Positions 1,572-61,706 of a stretch of 64,000 nt of DNA are shown here, piece after piece (position 1 is the stretch's first letter; every line of letters starts with the position of its first letter). The position numbers and the translations under genes are program-made. The stretch is from Candidatus Omnitrophota bacterium. Lineage in GTDB: Bacteria; Omnitrophota; Gorgyraeia; Duberdicusellales; 4484-171. Where the stretch lies: the NCBI GenBank assembly GCA_023134705.1, contig JAGLUN010000051.1, positions 3,362-67,361 of the forward strand, written 5' to 3'. Below the pieces are notes generated by a model. That model ran no database searches. It had not been told where the DNA came from and saw only the letters and a list, made by a program, of their open reading frames with translations.

Positions 1572-2410
1572 GTTTAGTAAAAACTACTGCGATAATATCC
1601 AGCGAGACGGATTTACAGACTTTTCTTAAATCTGTCGAGTATAGAGTTGTACGGAATAAAGAAGAGCTAAAGAAATCCTGCGCTCTCGTGTATAACGAAT
1701 ACATCAAAAGAGGTTATATGGAAAAAAATTTTTCCGGGTTAAGGATTTCAATCTATAACGCTTTTCCTCAAACAACTACTTTCATTGCCATTGTCGAACA
1801 CGAAGTCATAGCCACAGCTACTATAATACCTGATCTTTCTTTTGGGCTGCCGATGGAAACGACATACCATGAAGAACTTGAGAGATTCCGGAAGGAGAAC
1901 AAAAAGATTTGTGAGATATCTATGTTGGCCAGTGACACTGACCTTTTTAGCAGCGGAGCTTCAATGATGCTTCAGTCTAAAAAAATGTTTTTTATTTTCT
2001 TTTTATTCAAACTTATATTCGATTACGCCAAAAATATCCTTAACCTGGATAATATATGTATTACAATAAATCCCAAACACAATCTCACTTATGATTTTTT
2101 ATTATTTAAAAATATGGGTGGATTAAAAACATATTGCGATGCCAATGGGGCACCCGCGATAGCAAAATCCCTGGATTTAAATTCTATTGAAAAGGAATGT
2201 CAGGAAAAGAAAAAAGAAGGTATAGCCAGGATGTTTTTCCGGAGAAAAACCGATCCTGAGAAATTTTCCGGCAAATTTATGTTCAGCCTTCAGGATTTAA
2301 AATATTTTTTCACCGAGAAAACAGATATTTTTAAAAACGCCACCCCTTTTCAACTAGATTGCCTTAAACGCTGCTATCCCGCTTACGACTTCTCAACGAT
2401 TATCCCTTAA
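1568..2410 (+). CDS. GNAT-fold acyltransferase resembling the PEP-CTERM/exosortase-associated N-acyl amino acid synthase (FeeM-like) family
   Basis: 280 aa with a 4-bp start overlap with the PilZ gene. It sits next to an acyl-activating/ACP/acyltransferase gene, which is the context described for exosortase-associated N-acyltransferases. The family assignment rests on overall resemblance, not on a diagnostic motif. Confidence 0.4.
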   Translation: MSLVKTTAIISSETDLQTFLKSVEYRVVRNKEELKKSCALVYNEYIKRGYMEKNFSGLRISIYNAFPQTTTFIAIVEHEVIATATIIPDLSFGLPMETTYHEELERFRKENKKICEISMLASDTDLFSSGASMMLQSKKMFFIFFLFKLIFDYAKNILNLDNICITINPKHNLTYDFLLFKNMGGLKTYCDANGAPAIAKSLDLNSIEKECQEKKKEGIARMFFRRKTDPEKFSGKFMFSLQDLKYFFTEKTDIFKNATPFQLDCLKRCYPAYDFSTIIP

Positions 2411-2654
2411 GGAACGATAAAGAAAAAAATAATCATGAAACCACAGAGGACACCGAGAAATACTCTGGGAGAAGAGATGTCTCCCCCCTTTTGAAGATAT
2501 TAACCACAAAGAACCCAAAGAGCACAAAGTGAATGTTGATGAGTTAAAAAATAAAATTAACCCGCCAAAGGACGGATTTCGCTGGATACTTAATAAAGTG
2601 CTCAACCGCCGAAGGGGCAAATGGGAAAATATTTAAACCACAAGATTACACAGA

Positions 2655-2698
2655 TTCACCCTGTTAGATAATATAATTGAACCATCTAACGGGGTGAA
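2655..2698. other. Strong hairpin: 15-bp stem TTCACCCTGTTAGAT / ATCTAACGGGGTGAA with a 14-nt loop
   Basis: The inverted repeat is read directly from the sequence, with one T/G wobble position. It lies in the spacer between the two copies of the duplicated module. Confidence 0.6.
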
Positions 2699-3057
2699 CA
2701 CAGAAAAAAAGACACAGATAAACGCGGATTTTTTTAATTATGATTTAAAAGCGATATTTTCATATCAATCTTGTGAGAATCTCGTGAAAATTTTGTGGTT
2801 AAAAAATAATCCGCGTTAATCAGCTTAATACATTCCAATATGTGTTCTATCAATACTTTAACGTCTTTTTTCATAAAATAATCTCTTCTTCTTCTAATAT
2901 CTTTTCCTTAAGGAGAGAGTGAAGAGAAATATAGGTAACGATATTTTTACCTCCGGACAAAAATATAAGGTTGACATTTATAAAAATATAGTTGATAATT
3001 TAAAGCGAGAGATTTTGAATTTAAAAAAAGAAAGTGTGGTAGAAAATAAAAATTAAA

Positions 3058-3488
3058 TTGGGATTAATAAAAATTAAACACCTCGATTCAAGAGATAAAA
3101 GGAAGACCGAACGCCTTATGCTGGAGGGAAATCTTTGGGATAGGCTTGGTTTTTCTCAGAAATGGACCGGCCCTTTGCCTATAGAAAATATCAGCGGCGG
3201 CGGAATTAACTTCAGATATAAAAAAAGCTTTAAGAGAAATTCCGTGATAAATCCTATGATAGGTTTTCTTGGTGAAGGCGAACCTATAATCGTAAAAGGT
3301 AAAGTGACCTGGCCTAAGGCAATGCCTCCAGGCAAAACTTTAAACAATGAATTTTTACCGGGGGCTGCAAAACAGGCGTTAAGTTCTTCAAGATGGATTA
3401 TAATGACCGCCGCGAATTCATAGATTACTTTAGCGAAAAGGTCATTATTAAATACCTGGATGCCGAAGGCAAAATGGAATCAGAAAAA
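3058..3488 (+). pseudogene. PilZ paralog disrupted by a frameshift (G6 to G5 homopolymer) inside the duplicate copy
   Basis: It is identical in frame to the PilZ at 1131..1571 up to codon 101. From there the reading frame shifts, and the original C-terminus continues in another frame up to 3488. This could be a real pseudogene or a homopolymer sequencing error. Confidence 0.5.
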
Positions 3489-4300
3489 TGAGTTTAGTGA
3501 AAACTACTGCGGCAATATCCCGCGAGACGGATTTACGGACTTTTCTTGGACCTGTCGAGTATAGAGTTGTACGGAATAAAGAAGAGCTAAAGAAATCCTG
3601 CGCTCTCGTGTATAAAGAATACATAAAAAGAGGTTATATGGAAAAGAATTTTTCCGGGTTAAGGATTTCGATCTATAACGCTTTTCCTCAAACAACTACT
3701 TTCATTGCCATTGTCGAACAGGAAGTCATAGCCACAGCTACTATAATACCTGATCTTCCTTTTGGGCTGCCGATGGAGAAGACATACCATGAAGAACTTG
3801 AGAGATTCCGGAAGGACAACAAAAAGATTTGTCAGATATCTATGTTGGCCAGTGACAGCGAGCTTTTTAGCAGCGGAGCTTCAATGATGCTTCAGTCTAA
3901 AAAAATGTTTTTTGTTTTCTTTTTATTCAAACTTATGTTCGATTACGCTAAGAATATCCTTAACCTGGATAATGTATGTATTACAATAAATCCCAAACAC
4001 AATCCCACTTATGATTCTTTATTATTTAAAAATATGGGCGGATTAAAAACATATTCCGATGCCAATGGGGCACCCGCGATAGCAAAATTCCTGGATTTAA
4101 ATTCTGTCGAAACAGCCAGGATGTTTTTCTGGAGAAAAGCCGATCCTGAGAAATTTTCCGGCAAATTTATATTCAGCCATCAGGATTTAAAATACTTTTT
4201 CACCGAGAAAACAGATATCTTTAAAAACGCCACCCCTTTTCAACTAGATTGCCTTAAACGCTGCTATCCCGCTTACGACTTCTCAACGATTATTCCTTAA
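3488..4300 (+). CDS. Divergent paralog (270 aa, intact) of the GNAT-like N-acyl amino acid synthase-like protein
   Basis: It aligns over its full length to 1568..2410 with scattered substitutions and one 10-aa deletion. The frame is intact. Confidence 0.4.
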   Translation: MSLVKTTAAISRETDLRTFLGPVEYRVVRNKEELKKSCALVYKEYIKRGYMEKNFSGLRISIYNAFPQTTTFIAIVEQEVIATATIIPDLPFGLPMEKTYHEELERFRKDNKKICQISMLASDSELFSSGASMMLQSKKMFFVFFLFKLMFDYAKNILNLDNVCITINPKHNPTYDSLLFKNMGGLKTYSDANGAPAIAKFLDLNSVETARMFFWRKADPEKFSGKFIFSHQDLKYFFTEKTDIFKNATPFQLDCLKRCYPAYDFSTIIP

Positions 4301-4380
4301 GGATTTCACTTTGGATTATAATTTAAACTTTTATTTTCGGTTTTCTATTTTATGGTGTCTTGAATCTGGTATCTATTCAG

Positions 4381-4640
4381 AATTGATATTACGAGTATCT
4401 AGCATCCAGTATCGAGCTTCGCGTATCGCGTATCGAGCATCGCGTATTGCGTATCGAGTATCTAGCATCGAGGATCCAGGATCCAGGATCGAGGATCTAA
4501 AAGATTGTTCCTCATCTTTCGTCCCTCGTCCAAGTGAACGAAGTGAACGGTCGTCTCTCGTTCCTCGTTTTTCCTGTCCCCTCTCTTCTGTTCTCTAATT
4601 TTTATCTTCTAACGAGCATCTAGGATCAAGGATCTAAAAG
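4381..4640. repeat. Family-A composite intergenic repeat: CGCGTATCG-type octamer array, GATCCAGG/GATCGAGG units, then a CGTCCCTCGTC tract
   Basis: Tandem 8-9 bp units are read directly. The same composite recurs at 5521, 7834, 24496, 51271 and 57420. Confidence 0.8.
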
Positions 4641-4776
4641 GTTACATAAAGTTACTTAAAGTTACATAAGGTTACTTAAAGTTGCTTTAACGTGAAGCAA
4701 CCTTCCCTAACCTTAAGTAACGTTCTCAAAGTAACCTTCTTTAAGTAACCTTATTAGCCATCGACCATTGACTTCC
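4641..4776. repeat. Family-B element: imperfect palindrome built from GTTAC units phased every 10-11 bp, ending in GCCATCGACCATTGACTTCC
   Basis: The left arm is GTTACATAAAGTTACTTAAAGTTACATAAGGTTACTTAAAGTTGC. The centre is TTTAACGTGAAGCAACC. The right arm is the reverse-complement GTAACC units. Confidence 0.8.
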
Positions 4777-4801: not shown

Positions 4802-5143
4802 TTATTTCAAATATTCTTTTATTTTCAGCATTTTATTTTTTATATCCGGGATGTCCCGTAGTACAACTTCTAAAGTTAATTTCAAATCTATGCCGAAATA
4901 TTCATGTATAAGGATATCCCTCATACCGGCAATCTTTTTCCATGGAATCTCCGGATATTTTTCTTTTATGTCATCGGAAATATTCTTAACTGCTTCCCCG
5001 ATAATTTCGATACGGCGAATAACGGAATCCTGAAGCTGGACAGAGCCAAAAAAGTCATTGTCTGTTTTATCCCGCATATACTTTTCAACCAGCTCAATAG
5101 ATTCCAATATATGTTCTATCAATACTTTAACGTCTTTTTTCAT
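4802..5143 (-). CDS. hepT: HepT-like HEPN toxin (DUF86) of a HepT/MntA toxin-antitoxin pair
   Basis: It carries the Rx4HxY motif (RDILIHEY) and is 113 aa. It overlaps the upstream partner by 4 bp. Confidence 0.75.
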
Positions 5144-5427
5144 AAAATAATTTCTTGTTCTTCTAATATCTTTTCTTTAAGGAGGGGGTGAAGAGAAGCG
5201 TAGGTGACGATATCTACTTTTCTCCCCAGTAACTCCTGAAGTTCCAATTTTAAACCTACCAGATCTAATAAACTTTTTTTTTCTCCAAACTCAATAAGCA
5301 AATCAATATCACTTTCCTTTGTGATTTCGTTTCTTACAACCGAACCAAAAAGGGCGGCTTTTTTTACATTATGCTTTTTCAGTATTTTGTGAAAAACCTT
5401 TTTTATTTCATCAATCTGGATATCCAT
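5140..5427 (-). CDS. mntA: MntA-like minimal nucleotidyltransferase antitoxin
   Basis: It carries [17 protein letters not shown] (the GS...DxD nucleotidyltransferase motif). It is 95 aa and translationally coupled to hepT. Confidence 0.75.
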
Positions 5428-5636
5428 AAGTAGATTTGCTAAGGCACCCGTGAATAATAATGAAACAACTTAGTCCGATTATATAATAGCTTTATGTGCT
5501 TGTCAATAAAACCAGCGTTTTCTATTCGCGTATCGCATATCGAGGATCTAACAGATTATTCCTCCTCTCTCGTCCTTCATCTCTATATTCTTTACGAGTA
5601 TCGAGCATCGAGGATCTAGCATCAAGGATCTAAAAG

Positions 5637-5672
5637 GTTACATAAAGTTGCATAAAGTTACATAAGGTTGCG
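5637..5672. repeat. Family-B forward arm (GGTTACATAAAGTTGCATAAAGTTACATAAGGTTGCG) on the left of the four-helix-bundle gene
   Basis: It has the same phased GTTAC units as 4641..4690. The matching reverse arm lies at 6108..6225, on the other side of the gene. Confidence 0.7.
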
Positions 5673-6128
5673 TTTTTTTCGCAGCTTTGCGCCGGGGACT
5701 TTCCATGTTCCTTCCCGCTCCATCTTATACAAAGATTTAAGATATTGTCCAGTCATATAAGTCGCGCTTTGAAATAATTTCGAAAATGCGTCGAATTCTT
5801 TTTTGCTAATCAATCCGTCATCTTTGCAATCTTCAACATCGCCGCTTAATTCTTCTAAAGAACCCAGACTAATTCTAATGCTATGGATATATTCACCTAG
5901 AGTTCCTTTTCTATATCCCTCCCGTATATTTTGTTTTGCGCTTCTTGCGGCATCTCTCATTTGCGAAATCAGTCTTAGATGTATTGTTGAAAATCTTTTC
6001 GTTATTTTATGAATGAACTTACGTATTTGATAAATATCCTGATAAAATTTTAGCTTTTCATAGGCCAGAGTTTCCCGTCTTTCGTGTATTCTTTCGTCCA
6101 TTTCCTCTCTAACCTTCCCTAACCTCAA
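5658..6128 (-). CDS. Four-helix-bundle protein of the 23S rRNA intervening-sequence-associated family
   Basis: It carries ARSAKQNIREGYRKGT and SIRISLGSLEEL, the family core motifs (compare SxxNIAEG ... SxxExxxxL). It is 156 aa. Confidence 0.65.
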   Translation of the reverse strand: MRLGKVREEMDERIHERRETLAYEKLKFYQDIYQIRKFIHKITKRFSTIHLRLISQMRDAARSAKQNIREGYRKGTLGEYIHSIRISLGSLEELSGDVEDCKDDGLISKKEFDAFSKLFQSATYMTGQYLKSLYKMEREGTWKVPGAKLRKKRNLM

Positions 6129-6225
6129 GTAACTTTCTTAACGTAACCCTCTCAACGTAACCTTCTCTAACTTTAAGTAACTTTCTCAATGTACCCTTCC
6201 CCATGTAACCTTATGTACCCTTCCC
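6108..6225. repeat. Family-B reverse arm (GTAACC/TAACC units) on the right of the four-helix-bundle gene
   Basis: The sequence AACCTTCCCTAACCTCAAGTAACTTTCTTAACGTAACCCTCTCAACGTAACCTTCTCTAAC is nearly identical to 7783..7830 and 53880..53960. Confidence 0.75.
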
Positions 6226-7690: not shown

Positions 7691-7833
7691 ATTACATAAA
7701 GTTATTTAAAGTTGCATTAACGTTACGTAACCTTCTTAACGCAACCTTCCCTAACCTTAAGTAACCTTCTCTAAGTAGCCTTCTCTACGTAACCTTCCCT
7801 AACCTCAAGTAACTTTCTTAACGTAACCTTCTC
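7691..7833. repeat. Family-B palindromic element with a short forward arm and a long reverse arm
   Basis: The sequence runs ATTACATAAAGTTATTTAAAGTTGCATTAACGTTACGTAACC, followed by phased GTAACC units. Confidence 0.8.
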
Positions 7834-7925
7834 ATCTCACTTGTATCTCTATATTCTTTGCGAGTATCTAGCATCGAGCATCCAGCATCTAAAGTGTTAT
7901 CCCTCATCTTTCGTCCCTCGTCTCT
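7834..7925. repeat. Family-A repeat segment (GCATCGAGCATCCAGCATC units, then CGTCCCTCGTC)
   Basis: It has the same units as 4396..4560. Confidence 0.7.
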
Positions 7926-8106
7926 TGAATTCCGGTGACTCAATGCTTAATTATTAACCACAAGATTGTAGAATCTGCAACAAACTTTTTAAAATCCTTT
8001 TCAAAATTCTCTTTTAGTGCTATTCTATAATTGTTTTACAAAGAAACGTAATAGTTTAATTATTCATTTTATGGGAGAGTAAACATTTAGGAGAAATTAG
8101 TTTTAT

Positions 8107-17839: not shown

Positions 17840-18035
17840 ATAGGGGTTTTTGTTAGTATTTTTTTATACACGCAGATTTTTTCGTATCGCGTATCGAGTA
17901 TCGCGTATTGCGTAAAGAAAGTCGATAGTTAATAGCTGATAGTGGGAAAAGTAAGGCGTTAAATAGTTTTACGAGTTAGCGAGTTGAACGAGTTTAACGA
18001 GTTTTAATGAAAAGGATAGAGGTTTTTTATGAAAA

Positions 18036-18340: not shown

Positions 18341-18395
18341 CTTCACGCGATACGCAACATGCGATATGCGATACGCATTTACGCGATACGTTTTC
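18341..18395. repeat. Family-A CGCGATACG array overlapping the last codons of the PEP-CTERM gene
   Basis: It reads CACGCGATACGCAACATGCGATATGCGATACGCATTTACGCGATACG. Confidence 0.7.
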
Positions 18396-20642: not shown

Positions 20643-20741
20643 ATGAGGATGGATAGACGCAAATTATGAGATACGGTGAGATTGATAGCAATAATATAGT
20701 GGAAATATATAGAAATAGGTTGAAATATAGTTGAAATACAA

Positions 20742-20868
20742 GGTTACTTAAGGTTAGGGAAGGTTACGTAGGAAAGTTACATTGAGAAGGTTGCTTAAAG
20801 AAGGTTACTTCACGTCAACGTAACCTTAAGTAACTTTAAGTAACTTTATGTAACCTTATTTTAATTAA
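20742..20868. repeat. Family-B palindromic element in the opposite orientation
   Basis: It reads AAGGTTACTTAAGGTTAGGGAAGGTTACGTAGG...CACGTCAACGTAACCTTAAGTAACTTTAAGTAACTTTATGTAACC. Confidence 0.75.
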
Positions 20869-20931
20869 CTTCTGCAATCTTTTTTATCTATTTTTCCCGC
20901 GATACACAATACGCGATACGCGTTACGTTTT

Positions 20932-24495: not shown

Positions 24496-24700
24496 GATTT
24501 TTTCGTATGCTTATCGCGTATCGAGTATCGCGTATCGAGCATCCAGTATCTAAAAGCTCGTCCCTCGTCTCTTCGTCCCTCATTTTTCGTTTTTCCTGTC
24601 CTCTATTCTCTGATTTCTGTCTTCCAACGAGTATCCAGCATCGAGCATCTAGCATCTAAAGTTGGCCATCGGTTCCTTCGCCCATTGACTTTCTTTTAAC
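24496..24700. repeat. Family-A composite repeat (CGCGTATCGAG array, CGTCCCTCGTC tract, GCATCGAGCATCTAGCATC units, then a variant of the GCCATCG...CCATTGAC terminus)
   Basis: It is read directly and is collinear with 4396..4776. Confidence 0.8.
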
Positions 24701-48452: not shown

Positions 48453-48500
48453 TATTTGATTACACAGATTATTGCTAGATTACACAGATTTCTGTTCGAT
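48453..48500. repeat. Array of GATTACACAGAT-type units (left flank of the GxxExxY gene)
   Basis: It reads GATTACACAGATTATTGCTAGATTACACAGATTTCTGTTCGATTGCTCAGATT. Confidence 0.7.
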
Positions 48501-48508
48501 TGCTCAGA

Positions 48509-48889
48509 TTAAAGAACAAACCTTTTAACTCCACAACTTTTATTGCCGAAATTAACTAATAATCCGACTTTCAAATTAGATGCTCTTAAATAAGAAAGTA
48601 TCTGGTATTTAAAAACATCGGGAATATTGCCTGTTAAGGCTTTAACTTCAACTATAACTTTATCTTCTATGATTAAGTCTAATCTAAGTCTGCCAACATT
48701 CTCTCCTTGATACGAAATCGTAAAACTTTTCTCAGTCTGATACCTTAAGCCTTCCTGTTTTAAAGCTATCTCTAAGGCATTATGGTATATACGCTCATTA
48801 AATCCCGGCCCTAATTCAGAATGAACCCTATAACAACAACCTATTATTTTTTCTGTAAGTGAATCATTATCTTTCATCTGTGTAATCAT
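48509..48889 (-). CDS. GxxExxY-family protein (PD-(D/E)xK-like small selfish/insert gene)
   Basis: It carries LGPGFNERIYHNAL (G..E..Y) and the family end ...GVKRFVL. It is 126 aa. Confidence 0.65.
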   Translation of the reverse strand: MITQMKDNDSLTEKIIGCCYRVHSELGPGFNERIYHNALEIALKQEGLRYQTEKSFTISYQGENVGRLRLDLIIEDKVIVEVKALTGNIPDVFKYQILSYLRASNLKVGLLVNFGNKSCGVKRFVL

Positions 48890-48965
48890 TTTTCATAATC
48901 TGCGTAATCATTTATTATAATCTGTGCCATCATTTTTTATTATCTGTGTAATCTTCCTTTTAATC
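48890..48965. repeat. Array of ATCTGTGTAATC-type units (right flank, inverted relative to the left flank)
   Basis: It reads ATAATCTGCGTAATCATTTATTATAATCTGTGCCATCATTTTTTATTATCTGTGTAATCTTCCTTTTAATCTGTGTAATCA. Confidence 0.7.
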
Positions 48966-49850
48966 TGTGTAATCATTTATTCTAATAAATTTATCGGTAG
49001 ATTCCTCCCATTTTGGGATAGCGATATCTAATGTTTTTTTGATTTTTAAATTCGACATAGCGGAAAACATCGGCCTCTTTGCTTTTGTTTTAAAAGTATC
49101 TATTGAAACGGGAACAATTATATTTTCAGTACCCATTCTATTAATAAAATATCTGGCTAATTCATGTCTTGAAGCATAGCCGGTATTAGTTAGATGGAAT
49201 AAGCCCGTTATGCCTTTTTCTAAACTTAATAATGTAACATTTACAATATTTTCTGTATATGTAGGAACTGAGACTTCATCAGATGTTATTTTAAGCACTT
49301 TAGATTTTTCAGCCCACTGTCTTAACTTGTATAAAAAGTTTTGTTTCCCCTTTCCGATAACCCAACTTAATCTGAATATCAAAAAATCAGATAAACACTC
49401 TTTGATTGCCTGTTCTCCCTCTAATTTGCTTTTACCATATACATTAAGAGGATTTGTCATGTCTTCTTCTACATATAAATCCTGTTTTTGTCCATCAAAC
49501 ACATAGTCTGAACTATAGTGGACTAAAAATATTTTATTTTCTTTACAGATTCTTGCTAAATTCTCGACAGCCTGACTATTTACTAAATGTGCTAATTTTG
49601 AATTTTCTTCGGCTTCATCAACTAGATTATATGCGGCGCAATTAATAATGACATTGGGTTTAGCTTCATTTATTATTGTTCTTGTCTTTGTGAAATCAGT
49701 AATATCCCATTCTTCTTCCGATGGAGCAGCAAAATCAATTTTTCTTTCATGGAAAATTTTCTGAAATTCTTTACTTAATTGCCCTGAAGCGCCTGAAATT
49801 AAAAATTTATTATTCTTCATCGTAAATAAAGCTTTTTTTAATGTTATCAA
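48960..49850 (-). CDS. rfbD: dTDP-4-dehydrorhamnose reductase
   Basis: It has a Rossmann N-terminus (LISGASGQL), is 296 aa and lies in the rfb gene order. Confidence 0.8.
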   Translation of the reverse strand: MITLKKALFTMKNNKFLISGASGQLSKEFQKIFHERKIDFAAPSEEEWDITDFTKTRTIINEAKPNVIINCAAYNLVDEAEENSKLAHLVNSQAVENLARICKENKIFLVHYSSDYVFDGQKQDLYVEEDMTNPLNVYGKSKLEGEQAIKECLSDFLIFRLSWVIGKGKQNFLYKLRQWAEKSKVLKITSDEVSVPTYTENIVNVTLLSLEKGITGLFHLTNTGYASRHELARYFINRMGTENIIVPVSIDTFKTKAKRPMFSAMSNLKIKKTLDIAIPKWEESTDKFIRINDYTD

Positions 49851-51270: not shown

Positions 51271-51420
51271 TCTCTATTATCGTATATCGTATCGCGTATT
51301 GCGTATCGAGTATCGAATATCTATCATCTACTCTCCATTTTCTGTTCTCGCCCTACATTTCTCGTCCTTCGTCTTTTCGTCTCTCGTCCCTCGTTTCTTA
51401 TCCCCCTTCACTTCCGTCCA
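51271..51420. repeat. Family-A composite repeat
   Basis: It has the CGTATCGCGTATTGCGTATCGAGTATCG array, then the TCGTCC/CTCGTCCCTCGT tract. Confidence 0.8.
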
Positions 51421-53740: not shown

Positions 53741-53990
53741 TTGCGTATCGTGTGAAGAAAGGTTACATAAAGTTACTTAAAGTTAAGGTTACTTAAAGTT
53801 ACATAAGGTTACTTAAAGTTGCTTAAGGTTGCGTTAACGTGAAGTAACCTTCTCAAAGCAACCTTCTCTAACCTTCCCTAACCTCAGGTAACTTTCCCAA
53901 AGTAACCTTCTCTGCGTAACCTTCTTAATGTAACCTTCTTAATGTAACCTTCTCTAAGTACCTTATCAGCTATCGACCATCGACTTCCTT
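53741..53990. repeat. Family-B element (the largest copy) with the terminus CAGCTATCGACCATCGACTTCC
   Basis: It reads AAGGTTACATAAAGTTACTTAAAGTTAAGGTTACTTAAAGTTACATAAGGTTACTTAAAGTTGCTTAAGGTTGCGTTAACGTGAAGTAACC, followed by nine reverse GTAACC/TAACC units. Confidence 0.85.
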
Positions 53991-55342: not shown

Positions 55343-55510
55343 CTCTCACCTTTTTTTATTTAACCACATTTTTTTTGACAGGATTAACTGGATTAACAAG
55401 ATAAAATTTCATATTTAACCACAAGATTACACTAGATCTTGATACTTTAAAATCTTCTTAACAATTTAATCGCGGATTATTTTTTTACCACGAAGTTCAC
55501 GAAGGTTTTA

Positions 55511-55957
55511 TCATAGAACAAATCTTTTTATTCCTAATTTTAATTTTTCAACGTTAAAATTAAGCAATAACCCAACTTTAATTTTTGCCAATTTCATATA
55601 AGTTAGTATTTGAGCTTCGTGTATGCCTAAAATTTTATCAACGCTTTTTAATTCTATAATAAGCTTATTTGCTATAAGAATATCGATACGATATCCACAA
55701 TCTAATTTAATCCCGTTATATTCTATCGGTAAAGAACATTGTAGAGTAAACGGTATATCTGATAGTTTTAATTCATGAGCTAAACATTGTTCATAAGCCG
55801 ATTCAAGTAAGCCTGGTCCAAGAGCCCGGTGTACTTTTATGGCACAACCTATAACTTTATTTGATAATTCATCAAATTTTACTTCGTGTCCTTCGTGTTT
55901 AAAATATTTATTTACCGGCACTTCTTCCATACTCATCTTCCAGCCTCTGGATATCAT
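55511..55957 (-). CDS. GxxExxY-family protein (second copy)
   Basis: It carries LGPGLLESAYEQCL and the end GIKRFVL. The start is probably internal (M8 or M10), so the overlap with manC may be shorter. Confidence 0.6.
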   Translation of the reverse strand: MISRGWKMSMEEVPVNKYFKHEGHEVKFDELSNKVIGCAIKVHRALGPGLLESAYEQCLAHELKLSDIPFTLQCSLPIEYNGIKLDCGYRIDILIANKLIIELKSVDKILGIHEAQILTYMKLAKIKVGLLLNFNVEKLKLGIKRFVL

Positions 55958-58179: not shown

Positions 58180-58578
58180 TTAATCTTCATTTTTGGCCTT
58201 AGTTTTTGATTTGTATGTTGAACTTATAAAGTTATTTAATTTGATTGATAATTTCTTGCTCAATTTTTCCATTTTGTTAAAAATATCTTTATCGATAATC
58301 TTTCGTTCATGGAGTAAAGATAACCAATGTTCACACGATTCACTTAAAGACGCACGGCTGGTATAATAGAACTTAATCCTATCTAAGAAGTGATATCTTT
58401 TATACCCTTCAGCAATGTTTGCCCCTACAGAATCGATAGATTCAATAAATTGATCTCCCATAATCTTCTTTTCATGCCAATTCAATGCGCTATAGATTTC
58501 CCATGCAATTCCTGATAATTCTCTGGATATCCTGTAAACCTCTAAATCCTTCAGTTCTATATATTTCTTTATATCCAT
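58180..58578 (-). CDS. Four-helix-bundle protein (23S IVS-associated family), second copy
   Basis: It carries SVGANIAEGYKRYH and YYTSRASLSESCEHW. It is 132 aa. Confidence 0.65.
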   Translation of the reverse strand: MDIKKYIELKDLEVYRISRELSGIAWEIYSALNWHEKKIMGDQFIESIDSVGANIAEGYKRYHFLDRIKFYYTSRASLSESCEHWLSLLHERKIIDKDIFNKMEKLSKKLSIKLNNFISSTYKSKTKAKNED

Positions 58579-58603: not shown

Positions 58604-59581
58604 CTACCCTTTCACCAGTTGGCTTTTAAAATATTCGACTGTTCTCCTAAGGCCTTGTTCAAAATCAACTATGGGTTTGAAGCCAAGCATTGACTTGATT
58701 TTAGAAACATCGGCTAAGGTTTTGAATACGTCTCCTTTGCGTACAGGTAAAAATTCCGGTTGGATATTTTTGCCGATGATTTTATTGAGTGAGTCAACTA
58801 TGCTTAATACAGTGTTGTCTTTTCCGTTGGCAACGTTAAGAATCGTATTGCGTATCGCGTATTGCGTATCGCGTAAAGGGACGGTGGCGGCAAGGATGTT
58901 GGCTTCAACTACGTTATCAATATAAGTAAAATCACGGGATTGTTTGCCATTACCAAAAATCGGCGGTTGTTCATTATTAAGAATGCAATGGATAAATTTA
59001 GGGATAACTACAGCGTATTCGTCGTCTAATGCCTGCCTTGGGCCGAACACGTTAAAGTAACGCAGGCTTACTGTTTCCAGGCCGAAGTTCTCGCTGAAAA
59101 TCCGGCAGTAATATTCACCGGCTAATTTAGTCAAAGCGTAAGGAGAAATAAGTAACGGATAGGCGGTTTCCTTCTCAGGGAATTTGTCGGTATCTCCATA
59201 AACAGAACTTGATGACGCAAAGACCAAACGTTTCGTCCCGCACTCTCCACCGGCTTTAAGCATATTTAAAGTGCCATTAATATTTACCTCGTTATATTCA
59301 TAAGGGTTATTCATTGATTTAGGTACACTGCGTAAGGCGGCCTGGTGGAATATAATTTCGATACCTTTACAGGCTCTTAGACAAGTATCATAGTCACAGA
59401 TATCGCCTCTGATTAGTCGATAGTCGATGGCCGATTGTCCATAGCTGGATACAAAAGAGAGGTTCTCTTCTTTTCCGGAAGAGAAGTTATCAAGTACAAC
59501 CACGTCATTTCCTTCCTTCAGTAATCGTTCAACAATATGTGAACCGATAAATCCTGCTCCGCCGGTTACCAATGCTTTCAT
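58604..59581 (-). CDS. NAD-dependent UDP-sugar 4-epimerase (GalE/WbpP-like extended SDR)
   Basis: It carries ALVTGGAGFIGSH and YALTKLAGE and is 325 aa. The codons 58849..58880 are a family-A repeat unit (see findings). Confidence 0.75.
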   Translation of the reverse strand: MKALVTGGAGFIGSHIVERLLKEGNDVVVLDNFSSGKEENLSFVSSYGQSAIDYRLIRGDICDYDTCLRACKGIEIIFHQAALRSVPKSMNNPYEYNEVNINGTLNMLKAGGECGTKRLVFASSSSVYGDTDKFPEKETAYPLLISPYALTKLAGEYYCRIFSENFGLETVSLRYFNVFGPRQALDDEYAVVIPKFIHCILNNEQPPIFGNGKQSRDFTYIDNVVEANILAATVPLRDTQYAIRNTILNVANGKDNTVLSIVDSLNKIIGKNIQPEFLPVRKGDVFKTLADVSKIKSMLGFKPIVDFEQGLRRTVEYFKSQLVKG

Positions 59582-59832
59582 TGTTTTCTCCTTATTTAAT
59601 AGATATTGTCAAAATTATTTAAGTTTAAATAACCAATCACCAAGATATACCCTTACGGGCACAGGCAAGATACAAACAAATTCCAATCTTCAATAATCAA
59701 TAACCAAAATACCTGATTTTGTTGAATTTTTTGGTTATTGAAATTTGGTCATTGGTTATTGTTTGGTTATTGTTTCTTGTGTCTTGGTTATTCATTCCTT
59801 CTGTGCCCTCTGTGGTTTTTTCATAACTTATC

Positions 59833-60590: not shown

Positions 60591-60800
60591 CTCAGGATTC
60601 CCTTCGGTCATTTCGTATTGCGTATCGCGTATCGCGTATTGCGTTATAAATTCCTTTTACTAACTTTATACCTTTTTTCCAAACTCTTAAATCTCTAAAA
60701 TATTTTATTTTGTCTTCCATTTTGTCATATTTGTGTTTTGTACGCGATACGCGATACTCGTTACGCGATACGCTATTATTGCTTTCATAAATTTCGTATT
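60591..60800. repeat. Family-A arrays in inverted orientation bracketing a 5' fragment (about 60650..60740) of a four-helix-bundle gene
   Basis: 60611..60645 reads CGTATTGCGTATCGCGTATCGCGTATTGCG. 60745..60790 reads GTACGCGATACGCGATACTCGTTACGCGATACG. 60650..60740 is about 90 percent identical to 61092..61180. Confidence 0.75.
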
Positions 60801-60803
60801 GCG

Positions 60804-61163
60804 TTATAATTTTTTTGCTAAATTAGTAATCATTCTACAAATATGGTCGATTATTTCTGTTAATTCGTTTTCTTTGTCTTCTTTTATGTAAGACAATTCT
60901 TTTGTAATTATCACCTGGGTTTCTAATTCCGCGCAGGAACCTAAAGATATATTGAGAAATTGTTTGTATTCTTTGTTATGTTTTCGTCTAAAACCCTCTG
61001 CTATGTTAGAAGGGATAGAAATGGCACATCTTCTCATTTGAGAAGAAAGTCCATATTGTTCTTCTTTAGGGAAACTTTTCGTTGTTTTATAAATTTCTTT
61101 TACTAGCTCTATACCTTTTTTCCAAACTCTTAAATCTCTAAAACGTCTTATTTTGTCTTCCAT
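60804..61163 (-). CDS. Four-helix-bundle protein (23S IVS-associated family), third copy
   Basis: It carries RRCAISIPSNIAEGFRRKH and NISLGSCAELETQ. It is 119 aa. Confidence 0.7.
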   Translation of the reverse strand: MEDKIRRFRDLRVWKKGIELVKEIYKTTKSFPKEEQYGLSSQMRRCAISIPSNIAEGFRRKHNKEYKQFLNISLGSCAELETQVIITKELSYIKEDKENELTEIIDHICRMITNLAKKL

Positions 61164-61214
61164 ATTGTCATATTTGTTTGTACGCGATACGCAATACGCG
61201 TTACGCGATACGAA

Positions 61215-61706
61215 TCACGCGATACGCGTTACAATATTTTTAAAGAATATAATTGCTCCCACAATTACCGCGTTTATTGAGGCTAAGAGGACCCCGGCAG
61301 CGGCAATGTCTTTAACCAGTTTAACCGAAGGATGATATTTCTTGCCGTTTAAAAAGTCTAAGCTTAACTCTAAAGCCGTGTTAATAATTTCACAAGCAAT
61401 AACAAAGATCATGGCTAAAAACAAAATTGCCATTTCTAAATAAGAAACCTTAATCAAAAGACTTAAGACAATGACCGATAATCCCGTAATAATATGTATA
61501 CGGATGTTCCTTTGGCTTTTTAAAGCGAATTTAAGCCCTTCCCAGGCACAAACAAAGCTGCTCAATAAATTTCTTCGTTTATTAAAAATATTTAAGGGAT
61601 AATTGTTAACCTCTAATGAAGAAGCATTAGCGGTTAAGGGATTAGGTCCGGAATGATTATTTTTTACAACTTCATCCATCCCTTGACCAAGATTAATCTC
61701 CGGCAT
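61215..61706 (-). CDS. dgkA: Diacylglycerol/undecaprenol kinase (DgkA family)
   Basis: It carries EIINTALELSLDF and VKDIAAAGVLLASINAVIVG, and has three transmembrane helices. The start is assigned at the internal Met to avoid the upstream overlap. The ORF could extend to 61772. Confidence 0.55.
   Translation of the reverse strand: MPEINLGQGMDEVVKNNHSGPNPLTANASSLEVNNYPLNIFNKRRNLLSSFVCAWEGLKFALKSQRNIRIHIITGLSVIVLSLLIKVSYLEMAILFLAMIFVIACEIINTALELSLDFLNGKKYHPSVKLVKDIAAAGVLLASINAVIVGAIIFFKNIVTRIA

Follow-up and report, generated by a model that had tools for sequence, protein, structure and literature searches.

A recurrent inverted-repeat element with gene-less, single-word and GxxExxY-carrying forms in bacteria and methane-oxidising archaea

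Introduction

Short genomic elements built from repeats, with no gene or a single small one, are known in several forms. Miniature inverted-repeat transposable elements (MITEs), such as Correia/NEMIS of Neisseria and ERIC, are palindromic sequences considered together with autonomous partners; the intervening sequences (IVSs) of 23S rRNA in Coxiella and Leptospira carry an open reading frame (ORF) for an S23p/four-helix-bundle protein (PMC4990558); and genes for homing endonucleases of the PD-(D/E)XK fold can be free-standing. TAACTGA heptamers, which belong to the short-tandem-repeat (STRR) type, form arrays in Beggiatoaceae, Cyanobacteria and Bacteroidetes (PMC4679880). Here we analyse an element that shares features with each of these. 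It lies in a 64,000-nt stretch of a Candidatus Omnitrophota bacterium (contig JAGLUN010000051.1 of assembly GCA_023134705.1; hereafter the window), where an earlier inspection of the letters alone (the sequence-only reading) had noticed a repeated 12-mer and genes of the GxxExxY family near some of its copies. A 2012 survey gave the function of this family (PF13366) as unknown and reported multiple transfers between Bacteria and Archaea (PMC3424549).

We find that the motif is the arm of a recurrent inverted-repeat element whose gene-carrying, gene-less and solo-word forms share their ends and can occupy the same site. The copy at 2636-2800 in our judgement probably belongs, as one without a gene, to a family of small inverted-repeat cassettes for which the GxxExxY nuclease would serve as the mobility enzyme. 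Searchable literature, itself incomplete, yielded no prior description of the motif, of the hairpin nested in the element or of a GxxExxY/PF13366 element, and nothing relevant on repeats and hairpins of the archaeal ANME-1 lineage; the presence of the same cassette ends in bacteria and in methane-oxidising archaea seems to be previously undescribed.

The motif is the left arm of a 165-nt palindrome

Exact copies of the 12-mer AACCACAAGATT lie on the + strand at 2636-2647, 7956-7967 and 55417-55428. These are the three copies noticed earlier, at coordinates then given as 2641, 7960 and 55398, which differ from ours by 5, 4 and 19 nt. When one mismatch is tolerated, the 64-kb window holds five sites against 0.38 expected, a number that none of 100 shuffles reached. 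Among the sites added in this way is an inverted copy, AACCACAAAATT, at 2789-2800, and the segment that it closes, 2636-2800, is an imperfect palindrome of 165 nt. The flagged 20-mer forms its left arm (2636-2655, + strand; words AACCACAAGATT and ACACAGAT), as shown by exact matches and by a position weight matrix (PWM) of the arm. At 11 of 12 positions the terminal 12-mers, 2636-2647 and 2789-2800, complement each other and thus make up terminal inverted repeats, and the architecture is that of 61 complete elements in other genomes.

Both arms are composed of 10-12-nt words of the form 'CAC(R)AGATT', and 2636-2820 as a whole is a chain of related words of 9-12 nt. The forward words run in the order AACCACAAGATT, ACACAGATT, a hairpin, ACACAGAAA..., ACACAGATA and AACGCGGATTTTTTT, with ACACAGAAAAAAAG, ACACAGATA and AACGCGGATTTTTTT occupying 2699-2735 (+ strand); the inverted words of the region are AATCTTGTGAG, AATCTCGTGAA, AATTTTGTGGTT and AAAAAATAATCCGCGTT. 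The right arm (2767-2800, - strand) reads AACCACAAAATT, TTCACGAGATT and CTCACAAGATT on its own strand and aligns with the 3' flank of the second of two GxxExxY genes in the window (gene 2). Directly beyond it, at 2801-2817 (- strand), stands an inverted CGCGGATT word, AACGCGGATTATTTTTT on the - strand, which pairs with 2721-2735 in the minimum-free-energy structure and is also present in the 3' flank of gene 2 (55466-55487). The alignment between the 3' part of the element and that flank scores 53, against a shuffle maximum of 36, and takes in the last codons of the gene, its stop (...ATCTTGTGA) and the tail GTGGT(T)AAAAAATAATCCGCG.

Folded alone as + strand RNA, 2636-2800 pairs its terminal 12-mers AACCACAAGATT and AATTTTGTGGTT at -48.0 kcal/mol. 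With flanks included, the two CGCGGATT words pair instead, at -59.3 kcal/mol (z = -8.65), compared with -48.2 kcal/mol for the - strand. We considered CGCGGATT(A)TTTTTT as a terminator and rejected it, as it lacks an adequate stem and is another word of the same vocabulary (compare L162). A DnaA box, suggested by TTAACCACA differing from TTATCCACA at one position, was ruled out by the abundance of the elements in Archaea.

A 24-nt arm PWM matched the window at 2636 and 55417 only, the left arm at 2636-2655 scoring 33.3 bits. A 13-nt PWM additionally matched 2788-2800, 7956 and, weakly, 17083. Because the scans find so few sites, we regard this dialect of the words, with AACCAC outermost, as rare in these 64 kb. 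The copy at 7956-7967 (+ strand) is a solo first word, AACCACAAGATT, and that at 55417-55437 (+ strand) a solo two-word arm, AACCACAAGATTACACTAGAT. As the sequence-only reading had held, there is no GxxExxY gene near 2636 or 7956, where no ORF matches the family.

The position of the element between two copies of a duplication, also noticed earlier, was borne out: the flanking segments 1026-2413 and 2947-4303 are 93-96% identical. They are a tandem duplication of a PilZ gene and a FeeM-like N-acyl amino acid synthase gene, and in the second copy PilZ has a length of 121 aa, less than in the first, and its C terminus is altered. Between the element and the second copy lies the remnant of a gene pair (2818-2944, - strand), comprising the C terminus of MNT and the N terminus of HepT and 90% identical to an intact pair at 5087-5213. 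The remnant ends exactly at the start of the word element and marks a deletion or rearrangement scar; because the truncated MNT/HepT abuts it, the element therefore sits at a rearrangement scar within the spacer of the tandem duplication. On its other side, 2438-2636 holds more CAC-type words (AACCACAGAGGACACCGAGAA, AACCACAAAGAACCCAAAGAGCACAAAG) and then a 35-codon ORF (2529-2636) with no Pfam match. An Rfam scan of the window returned no match at gathering score, rRNA included, a permissive scan of 2300-3100 gave chance-level matches only (E >= 0.15), and a tRNA scan found none.

Gene-less copies in other genomes

We scanned the GTDB species representatives (596 Gb) for the exact 20/21-mer and found it in at least 120 genome stretches, where we estimate about one chance occurrence for the 20-mer. 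Among the matches listed, 103 stretches were archaeal and 17 bacterial, as judged by record title. The archaeal holders were ANME-1/Methanophagales, Methanosarcinales, Ethanoperedens, Syntrophoarchaeum and Methanolliviera, and the bacterial ones TA06, WOR-3, Stahlbacteria, Planctomycetota, Acidobacteriota, Anaerolineales and Deltaproteobacteria. The motif was intergenic at 100 of 126 sites and mostly formed the left arm of hairpins of 60-260 nt. The 61 complete copies are hairpins of 62-262 nt with the right-arm consensus TTCTTGTGTTAATCTYGTGRAATCTCGTGGTT, and their cores are variable yet grouped in subfamilies.

Many archaeal copies are nested within outer inverted repeats, GTAYNTGTTTAGCT...AGCTAWACAYRTAC. 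Perfect 8-bp target-site duplications flank 8 of 14 such copies and two more agree at 7 of 8 positions (null expectation, 0.6). Such duplications are a hallmark of transposition, and archaeal gene-less copies appear to transpose. In metagenome-assembled genomes (MAGs) of ANME-1 and related archaea (L003-L122; for example, L071, L086, L111 and L120) the resulting MITE measures ~100-190 bp, with GTAYNTGTTTAGCT and AGCTAWACAYRTAC as its ends, an 8-bp target-site duplication and an AACCAC hairpin as its interior; other word hairpins, such as GACACAGATTAACGCAGATTAACACAGAT, lie nearby. An Rfam scan of four archaeal loci returned tRNA only. Scans of IMG/VR for the arm gave no matches, and a viral scan for GxxExxY relatives gave only two loci, of which one (L246) was informative.

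Gene-carrying copies and a site in three states

One GxxExxY subfamily has a motif arm directly 5' of the gene. In 39 of the top 120 homologues the arm is translated within the called N terminus, as M(E/K)P(Q/R)D(Y/F)TRLTQ. At L012, the one exact-motif locus that holds a gene, the order is ATGG|AACCACAAGATTACACGAGATTAACACAGAA, GxxExxY gene, AATCTTGTGAAAATCTGTGTCAATCGGGTGGTT and then, directly, an empty copy. The core of the latter, 11 nt long, is identical to the bases that immediately precede the right arm in the filled copy; the empty copy would therefore be an internal-deletion derivative. In two ANME-1 loci (L255, L258) and one from Omnitrophica (L259), the gene likewise stands between such arms or among tandem empty copies, and L246, from the viral collection, has the same layout in a different word dialect, plus tandem empty copies.

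The junction between the Fe-ADH and UPF0179 genes allowed an allelic comparison across three ANME-1 lineages, whose UPF0179 proteins share 81-90% identity with the one in L255. The site exists in three states. L255 has left arm, GxxExxY gene and right arm; L263 and L264 have left arm, a 130-nt non-coding core and right arm; and L260-L262 have only ACCACGAGATT, an 11-12-nt word, in a 22-nt spacer. Judged by these alleles, 2636-2800 in the window corresponds to the gene-less state and the solo word at 7956 to the single-word state (as in L261), and the two-word arm at 55417 probably corresponds to the single-word state as well. The sequence-only reading had suggested that the first two may be empty or scarred insertion sites of a small mobile element. 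With a three-state site and shared ends, this proves largely right, 2636 fitting as gene-less and 7956 as a solo word. In L012, L255 and L259 such arms do enclose a GxxExxY gene; the reading would have made these genes cargo, but the gene may instead drive the element.

A second set of words behaves in the same way. Four other lineages have homologues of the first GxxExxY gene of the window (gene 1), with 71-72% protein identity, at unrelated loci. In Omnitrophica CG11 the homologue lies between EpsH and EpsI, in WOR-3 it is flanked by uvrB and an aminotransferase gene, in a deltaproteobacterium it follows an MptE-like gene, and in Ratteibacteria it precedes a PvlArgDC gene. At all four loci at least two GATTACACAGAT words stand upstream of the gene and ATCTGTGTAATC words stand downstream of it; empty copies adjoin some of them. 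In many homologues the words are part of the called protein and read MIKKKITEIK or MITQIK. The arms accompany the GxxExxY gene from one locus and lineage to another. Where a copy carries the gene, its orientation is that of the upstream neighbour in 9 of 10 cases and that of the downstream neighbour in 10 of 10.

GxxExxY genes in the window and their protein

The window's two GxxExxY genes, named in the sequence-only reading, were confirmed by PF13366 and TIGR04256 with E-values of 1e-37 to 1e-44. Gene 1 (48509-48889, - strand) lies between rmlD and rmlB (PF13366, 4e-37; TIGR04256, 132.7 bits against a cut-off of 35), and NCBI has a protein with 100% identity to its product, under the name Candidatus Omnitrophica. 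The longest ORF of gene 2 spans 55511-55957 (- strand; PF13366, 6e-43; TIGR04256, 1.3e-44 and 151.3 bits), its true start probably lying near 55920-55934. Each gene occupies the whole spacer between co-oriented sugar-nucleotide genes. The gene content of the window is bacterial, with PEP-CTERM proteins, a sigma-54 activator, PilZ and rml/EPS genes. The source sample is the metagenome ZHAN22-2; in its ENA assembly, the FeeM region (scaffold_3461) and the rml/GxxExxY region (scaffold_118) are apart, and the window joins them (L244 versus L001/L243); exact-protein look-ups of rmlD and FeeM gave matches in the same sample only.

Both genes use words other than the flagged motif. The word GATTACACAGAT had been described as the unit of arrays that flank gene 1 and are inverted on its far side, which our counts support: seven sites against 0.28 expected in the window, exact on the + strand at 2644, 48458 and 48478 and on the - strand at 48876, 48942 and 48963, plus a one-mismatch copy at 48898 (- strand). 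Degenerate copies lie at 48498-48509 and 48920-48931. The 5' array of gene 1 (48876-48974, - strand) has a period of 21-22 nt and consists of five (AT)GATTACRCAGAT words, the last of which contains the start codon; the 3' array (48458-48509, + strand) has three inverted words, ATCTGTGTAATC in gene orientation, and begins at the stop codon. Gene 2 has AAACACGAAGGACACGAAG as its 5' arm (55882-55900, - strand) and CCTTCGTGAACTTCGTGG followed by TAAAAAAATAATCCGCGATTAA as its 3' arm (55466-55505, - strand). The solo arm at 55417 is not among these. It lies 3' of gene 2, as the sequence-only reading had it, at a distance of ~75-95 nt and not at the coordinate then given, 55398, and is antisense to the gene. 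Words also differ among the cassettes of one genome, CACGAAG, GATTACACAGAT and AAGGTTAC being examples.

The catalytic residues of the PD-(D/E)XK fold are kept in GxxExxY proteins: E28, D67, E77 and K79 (E, D, E-x-K) are invariant across 40 sequences. An AlphaFold2 model with a predicted local distance difference test score (pLDDT) of 91.4 had as its Foldseek neighbours Cas4 (4ic1; E = 7e-4), RecB-type nuclease domains, relatives of lambda exonuclease and Hjc; solved structures included no sequence relative. The best matches of the L012 protein are Methanophagales, WOR-3 and Omnitrophica proteins at 74-81% identity. The GxxExxY/PDDEXK_3 family is very large: with this protein as the query, for one subfamily alone, 7906 of 8000 scored candidates were matches at E <= 1e-10.

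A cassette model and its difficulties

In the model that we favour, a cassette would have arms of short tandem arrays of 10-12-nt 'CAC(R)AGATT' words, with AACCAC outermost on the left and GTGGTT outermost on the right. Full-length members would carry a gene for a GxxExxY PD-(D/E)XK nuclease of ~125 aa between the arms, co-oriented with its neighbours in a short operon spacer. The left arm would begin at the upstream stop codon or a few bases after it, and the right arm would overlap the GxxExxY stop codon and end a few bases before the next start codon. Such a cassette could be expressed from the host operon, and pairing of its arms may take place in the transcript or, as a cruciform, in the DNA. 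Its nuclease would act as the mobility enzyme, copying the cassette into word-bearing sites by a homing-like or cut-and-repair process. Deletion stimulated by the palindrome would then yield gene-less and solo-word forms, so that gene-less hairpins and single words would be derived or alternative states of the same sites, with 7956 and 55417 as solo arms. In ANME-1, gene-less copies would additionally have spread as MITEs with outer inverted repeats of their own.

Several observations weigh against this model. Mobility is read here from the distribution of the copies plus one allelic series. A GxxExxY ORF occurs at 1 of 120 exact-motif loci of ~8 kb each, in a search that is biased to the archaeal MITE subfamily; the exact motif therefore mostly marks gene-less copies, and the association between motif and gene proposed from the window fails in this count and holds for the subfamily in which arms enclose the gene. 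Binning errors in MAGs could inflate the taxonomic spread, and one stretch, L081, looks archaeal. At the window copy itself, the core has no recognisable GxxExxY remnant beyond the last few codons, and there is no target-site duplication: by eye, the flanks AATATTTA and AAAAAATA agree at 5 of 8 positions. In the window, arrays of quite different words also flank four-helix-bundle genes, and MNT/HepT and AbiE lie among such arrays. Since not every cassette of this kind can encode a nuclease, a host process or one acting in trans may be at work. Finally, each strand of the arm consensus has one wobble and one A:C mismatch with no strand-specific G:U bias, and RNA-level and DNA-level function are therefore not separable.

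Alternative explanations

An explanation that we consider improbable, although it accounts for several observations, is that the palindrome works purely at the RNA level as an immobile cis element, be it a terminator, an mRNA-stabilising structure or an RNase III-type processing structure. The strong fold of the + strand compared with the - strand fits this idea, as does the co-orientation of gene-carrying copies with their neighbours. So do the archaeal copies, which are typically followed by a T-run (GTGGTTTTT) and are found downstream of a co-oriented gene twice as often, in many cases 2-25 nt past its stop codon. However, no T-run follows the window copy, no Rfam family matches, and the 8-bp target-site duplications and the three-state site are evidence of gain and loss at the DNA level. 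Identical arms at unrelated loci in both domains would also be unexpected for locally evolved terminators. An RNA-level role in cis is compatible with the cassette model as a secondary effect.

We see little chance that the words are local short-tandem-repeat arrays of the STRR/heptamer type, raised by replication slippage in AT-rich spacers of this genome, so that those beside GxxExxY genes would be slipped copies of the gene starts and no transposable unit would exist. Slippage accounts neither for inverted copies beyond the other end of the gene nor for the same words beside homologues at unrelated loci in five lineages, the exact 20-mers common to Bacteria and Archaea or the target-site duplications; the already suggested tracking of word sequence with cassette phylogeny rather than with the host genome also argues against it. 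What such a process would account for is the saturation of the window with other word arrays, the presence of ATG plus the first codons in each 5' word of gene 1 and an array in frame inside an epimerase gene. There is also a published precedent in comparable, unexplained TAACTGA repeats upstream of start codons (PMC4679880).

Just as doubtful is a reading of the words as iteron-like arrays of binding sites for a shared DNA- or RNA-binding protein, set on one helix face by their 10-11-bp period and only incidentally linked to GxxExxY. The word period of 10-11 or 20-22 nt and the very high conservation of the words agree with this, and the arms keep a conserved A/G asymmetry that simple homogenisation of inverted repeats would erase. 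Yet no candidate binding protein was identified, words vary between cassettes within one genome, and presence and absence at one ANME-1 site are left without a cause. Should GxxExxY itself be the protein that binds them, such sites may nonetheless form part of the cassette mechanism.

Integron-type attC sites, which have core sites RYYYAAC/GTTRRRY, are largely refuted as a description of the palindromes: as boundaries of promoterless gene cassettes they would match imperfect palindromes of 60-165 nt beside small ORFs, including toxin-antitoxin genes, as well as the core-like ends TTAAC...GTTAA(A), the GTTAGAT/ATCTAAC hairpin and toxin-antitoxin pairs bracketed by hairpin-containing repeats (L149, L153), but the GxxExxY ORF lies between two arms and not outside a palindrome, the order of the core sites in the hairpin (GTTAGAT...ATCTAAC) is inverted relative to attC, archaeal copies are without core sites and no window ORF scanned has an integrase domain.

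The nested hairpin at 2655-2698

The hairpin between the forward words of the element (2655-2698) has a stem of 15 bp, TTCACCCTGTTAGAT / ATCTAACGGGGTGAA, and a 14-nt loop, and belongs to a palindrome family of the form CCCYGTTAGA...TCTAACRGGG. The sequence-only reading had its place and length right; folding the region gave the 15-bp stem. The stem, which had been called perfect, is not strictly so: the arms 2655-2669 and 2684-2698 form 14 Watson-Crick pairs and one T2662:G2691 pair.

A metagenome scan found the hairpin pattern in at least 120 stretches. The chance expectation for the pattern is not negligible (our estimate, 20-60), and because chance could give tens of matches, we based the assignment to a family on features that the search pattern does not contain. 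Loops lengthened the stem by three further covarying Watson-Crick pairs in 59 of 100 copies, against a null of 17, and a 3-nt direct repeat flanked 61 of 111 copies (null mean, 16; maximum, 27). Copies were intergenic in 86 of 111 cases (77%), a single loop sequence recurred across many samples, and the heads observed were GTAA/GTGA/TTC, where REP/REPIN elements have a GTAG-type head. None of the 120 loci had a GxxExxY gene. A CRCAGATT word lay within 40 nt of 8 of 111 hairpins, compared with a background of ~0.05 per 80 nt; this association is weak and, by eye, concerns mainly the ACCCTGTTAGAT subfamily, in some copies of which the hairpin stands between CRCAGATT words as it does in the window (L154, L239, L218). 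The stem sequence also recurs in a Planctomycetia MAG beside AACCAC arrays. The hairpin thus appears to be an independent and widespread tiny palindromic repeat, similar to repetitive extragenic palindromes (REPs) or to MITEs, that is nested between two words. The earlier idea that it could be a structured RNA or a recombination site gained no support, and its family has no link to GxxExxY.

The hairpin is REP- or REPIN-like in being a palindrome of 30-55 nt with a conserved stem and variable loops, in its largely intergenic location and in the occurrence of tandem or nested copies. It differs in its AT-richer stem and in the flanking 3-nt direct repeat, which is no REP feature. No RAYT gene was seen, though no search aimed at RAYT was made. 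At two loci, hairpins of the CCCCGTTAGA type lie in direct repeats that bracket pairs recognised from ORF translations only: a HigB/HigA-like pair within repeats of ~190 nt (L149, 2640-4400) and an RHH/MazF-like pair (L153, 860-1920).

Other word arrays in the window

Dense arrays of 7-nt GTATCGC, GCATCGA and GGATCTA words fill many intergenic regions and often bracket pyrimidine-rich CTCGTCC arrays. The 7-nt word arrays lie at 4392-4497, 5595-5632, 7861-7889, 17883-17914, 24505-24550, 51278-51321 and 60614-60644, and inverted ones at 18345-18390, 20898-20927, 60741-60773 and 61181-61232. Together with the CTCGTCC arrays they form a modular dispersed repeat.

A further set of hairpins has arms of arrayed 10-nt AAGGTTACWT words and their complement. 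Four are without a gene (4638-4752, 7692-7834, 20740-20858 and 53759-53968), and one arm pair (5634-5674 / 6104-6222) brackets a four-helix-bundle (23S_rRNA_IVP) gene at 5658-6128. These hairpins repeat, with different words, the filled-versus-empty pattern of the GxxExxY cassettes. Two more four-helix-bundle or bAvd-like genes (58180-58578 and 60804-61163) are flanked by arrays of the GAAATA and TACGCGA types, and a 96-nt segment at 60639-60734 has a 91%-identical second copy, 61082-61177, into which the start of the gene at 60804-61163 extends. A GCGATAC-type heptamer array at 58841-58875 is in frame in an ORF for an NAD-dependent epimerase (58604-59581, - strand), where it encodes ...PLRDTQYAIRNT.... 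At 59666-59832, a composite hairpin has AATAACCAA and TTGGTTATT arrays, which resemble cyanobacterial STRR heptamers, nested in CACAGAG-type words ending in GTGGTTTTTT.

Implications

A broader reading, which we put forward tentatively and hold to be unlikely in its full extent, is that GxxExxY proteins at large are the mobility nucleases of unrecognised miniature cassettes, which would home to operon junctions, have inverted word arrays at their ends for the nuclease to recognise, decay to MITE-like hairpins and single-word scars and pass between Bacteria and alkane- and methane-oxidising Archaea. If true, it would explain the patchy, multi-copy distribution of GxxExxY genes and, by extension, that of the four-helix-bundle ('23S rRNA IVS') genes. 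Such cassettes, with the forms they decay into, would be the source of much of the intergenic 'word' repeats and of the odd N-terminal extensions (MEPQDYTRLTQ, MIKKKITEIK) in gene calls from MAGs of Omnitrophota, WOR-3, Desulfobacterota and ANME-1. They would also serve as a marker of DNA exchange within methane-oxidising sediment communities. For the GxxExxY family, the link to a defined cassette turns 'function unknown' into a testable hypothesis, namely that it is the nuclease of a miniature mobile element.

Comparison with known systems

Among described systems, MITEs with autonomous partners resemble the element in several respects: they too are intergenic imperfect palindromes of ~100-200 bp in many copies, the gene-less copies share their ends with a gene-carrying form, and the archaeal copies have 8-bp target-site duplications. 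The cassettes differ in that their arms are tandem arrays of 10-12-nt words and not a single terminal inverted repeat, in that the gene-carrying form encodes only a PD-(D/E)XK protein of ~125 aa and no recognised transposase, and in the missing target-site duplication of the window copy.

The 23S rRNA IVS provides another parallel, as a small, patchy, multi-copy ORF family whose ORF is bracketed by inverted repeats that form a long stem, and which is regarded as selfish (PMC4990558). The three four-helix-bundle genes of the window, flanked by analogous word arrays, strengthen the likeness. The cassettes, however, sit in operon spacers and not in rRNA helices, and their ORF encodes a nuclease-fold protein.

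With free-standing PD-(D/E)XK homing endonuclease genes, the cassettes share a small nuclease gene that is present or absent at the same site, intact catalytic residues and a patchy distribution across domains (PMC3424549). GxxExxY genes differ in having no intron or intein context and in being flanked by inverted word arrays, of which the empty site keeps one word. The TAACTGA heptamer/STRR repeats are also word arrays immediately upstream of start codons with an unexplained cross-phylum distribution, for which a post-transcriptional role has been proposed (PMC4679880). Those repeats are direct only, whereas the element analysed here has an inverted partner, an enclosed gene and gene-less palindromes.

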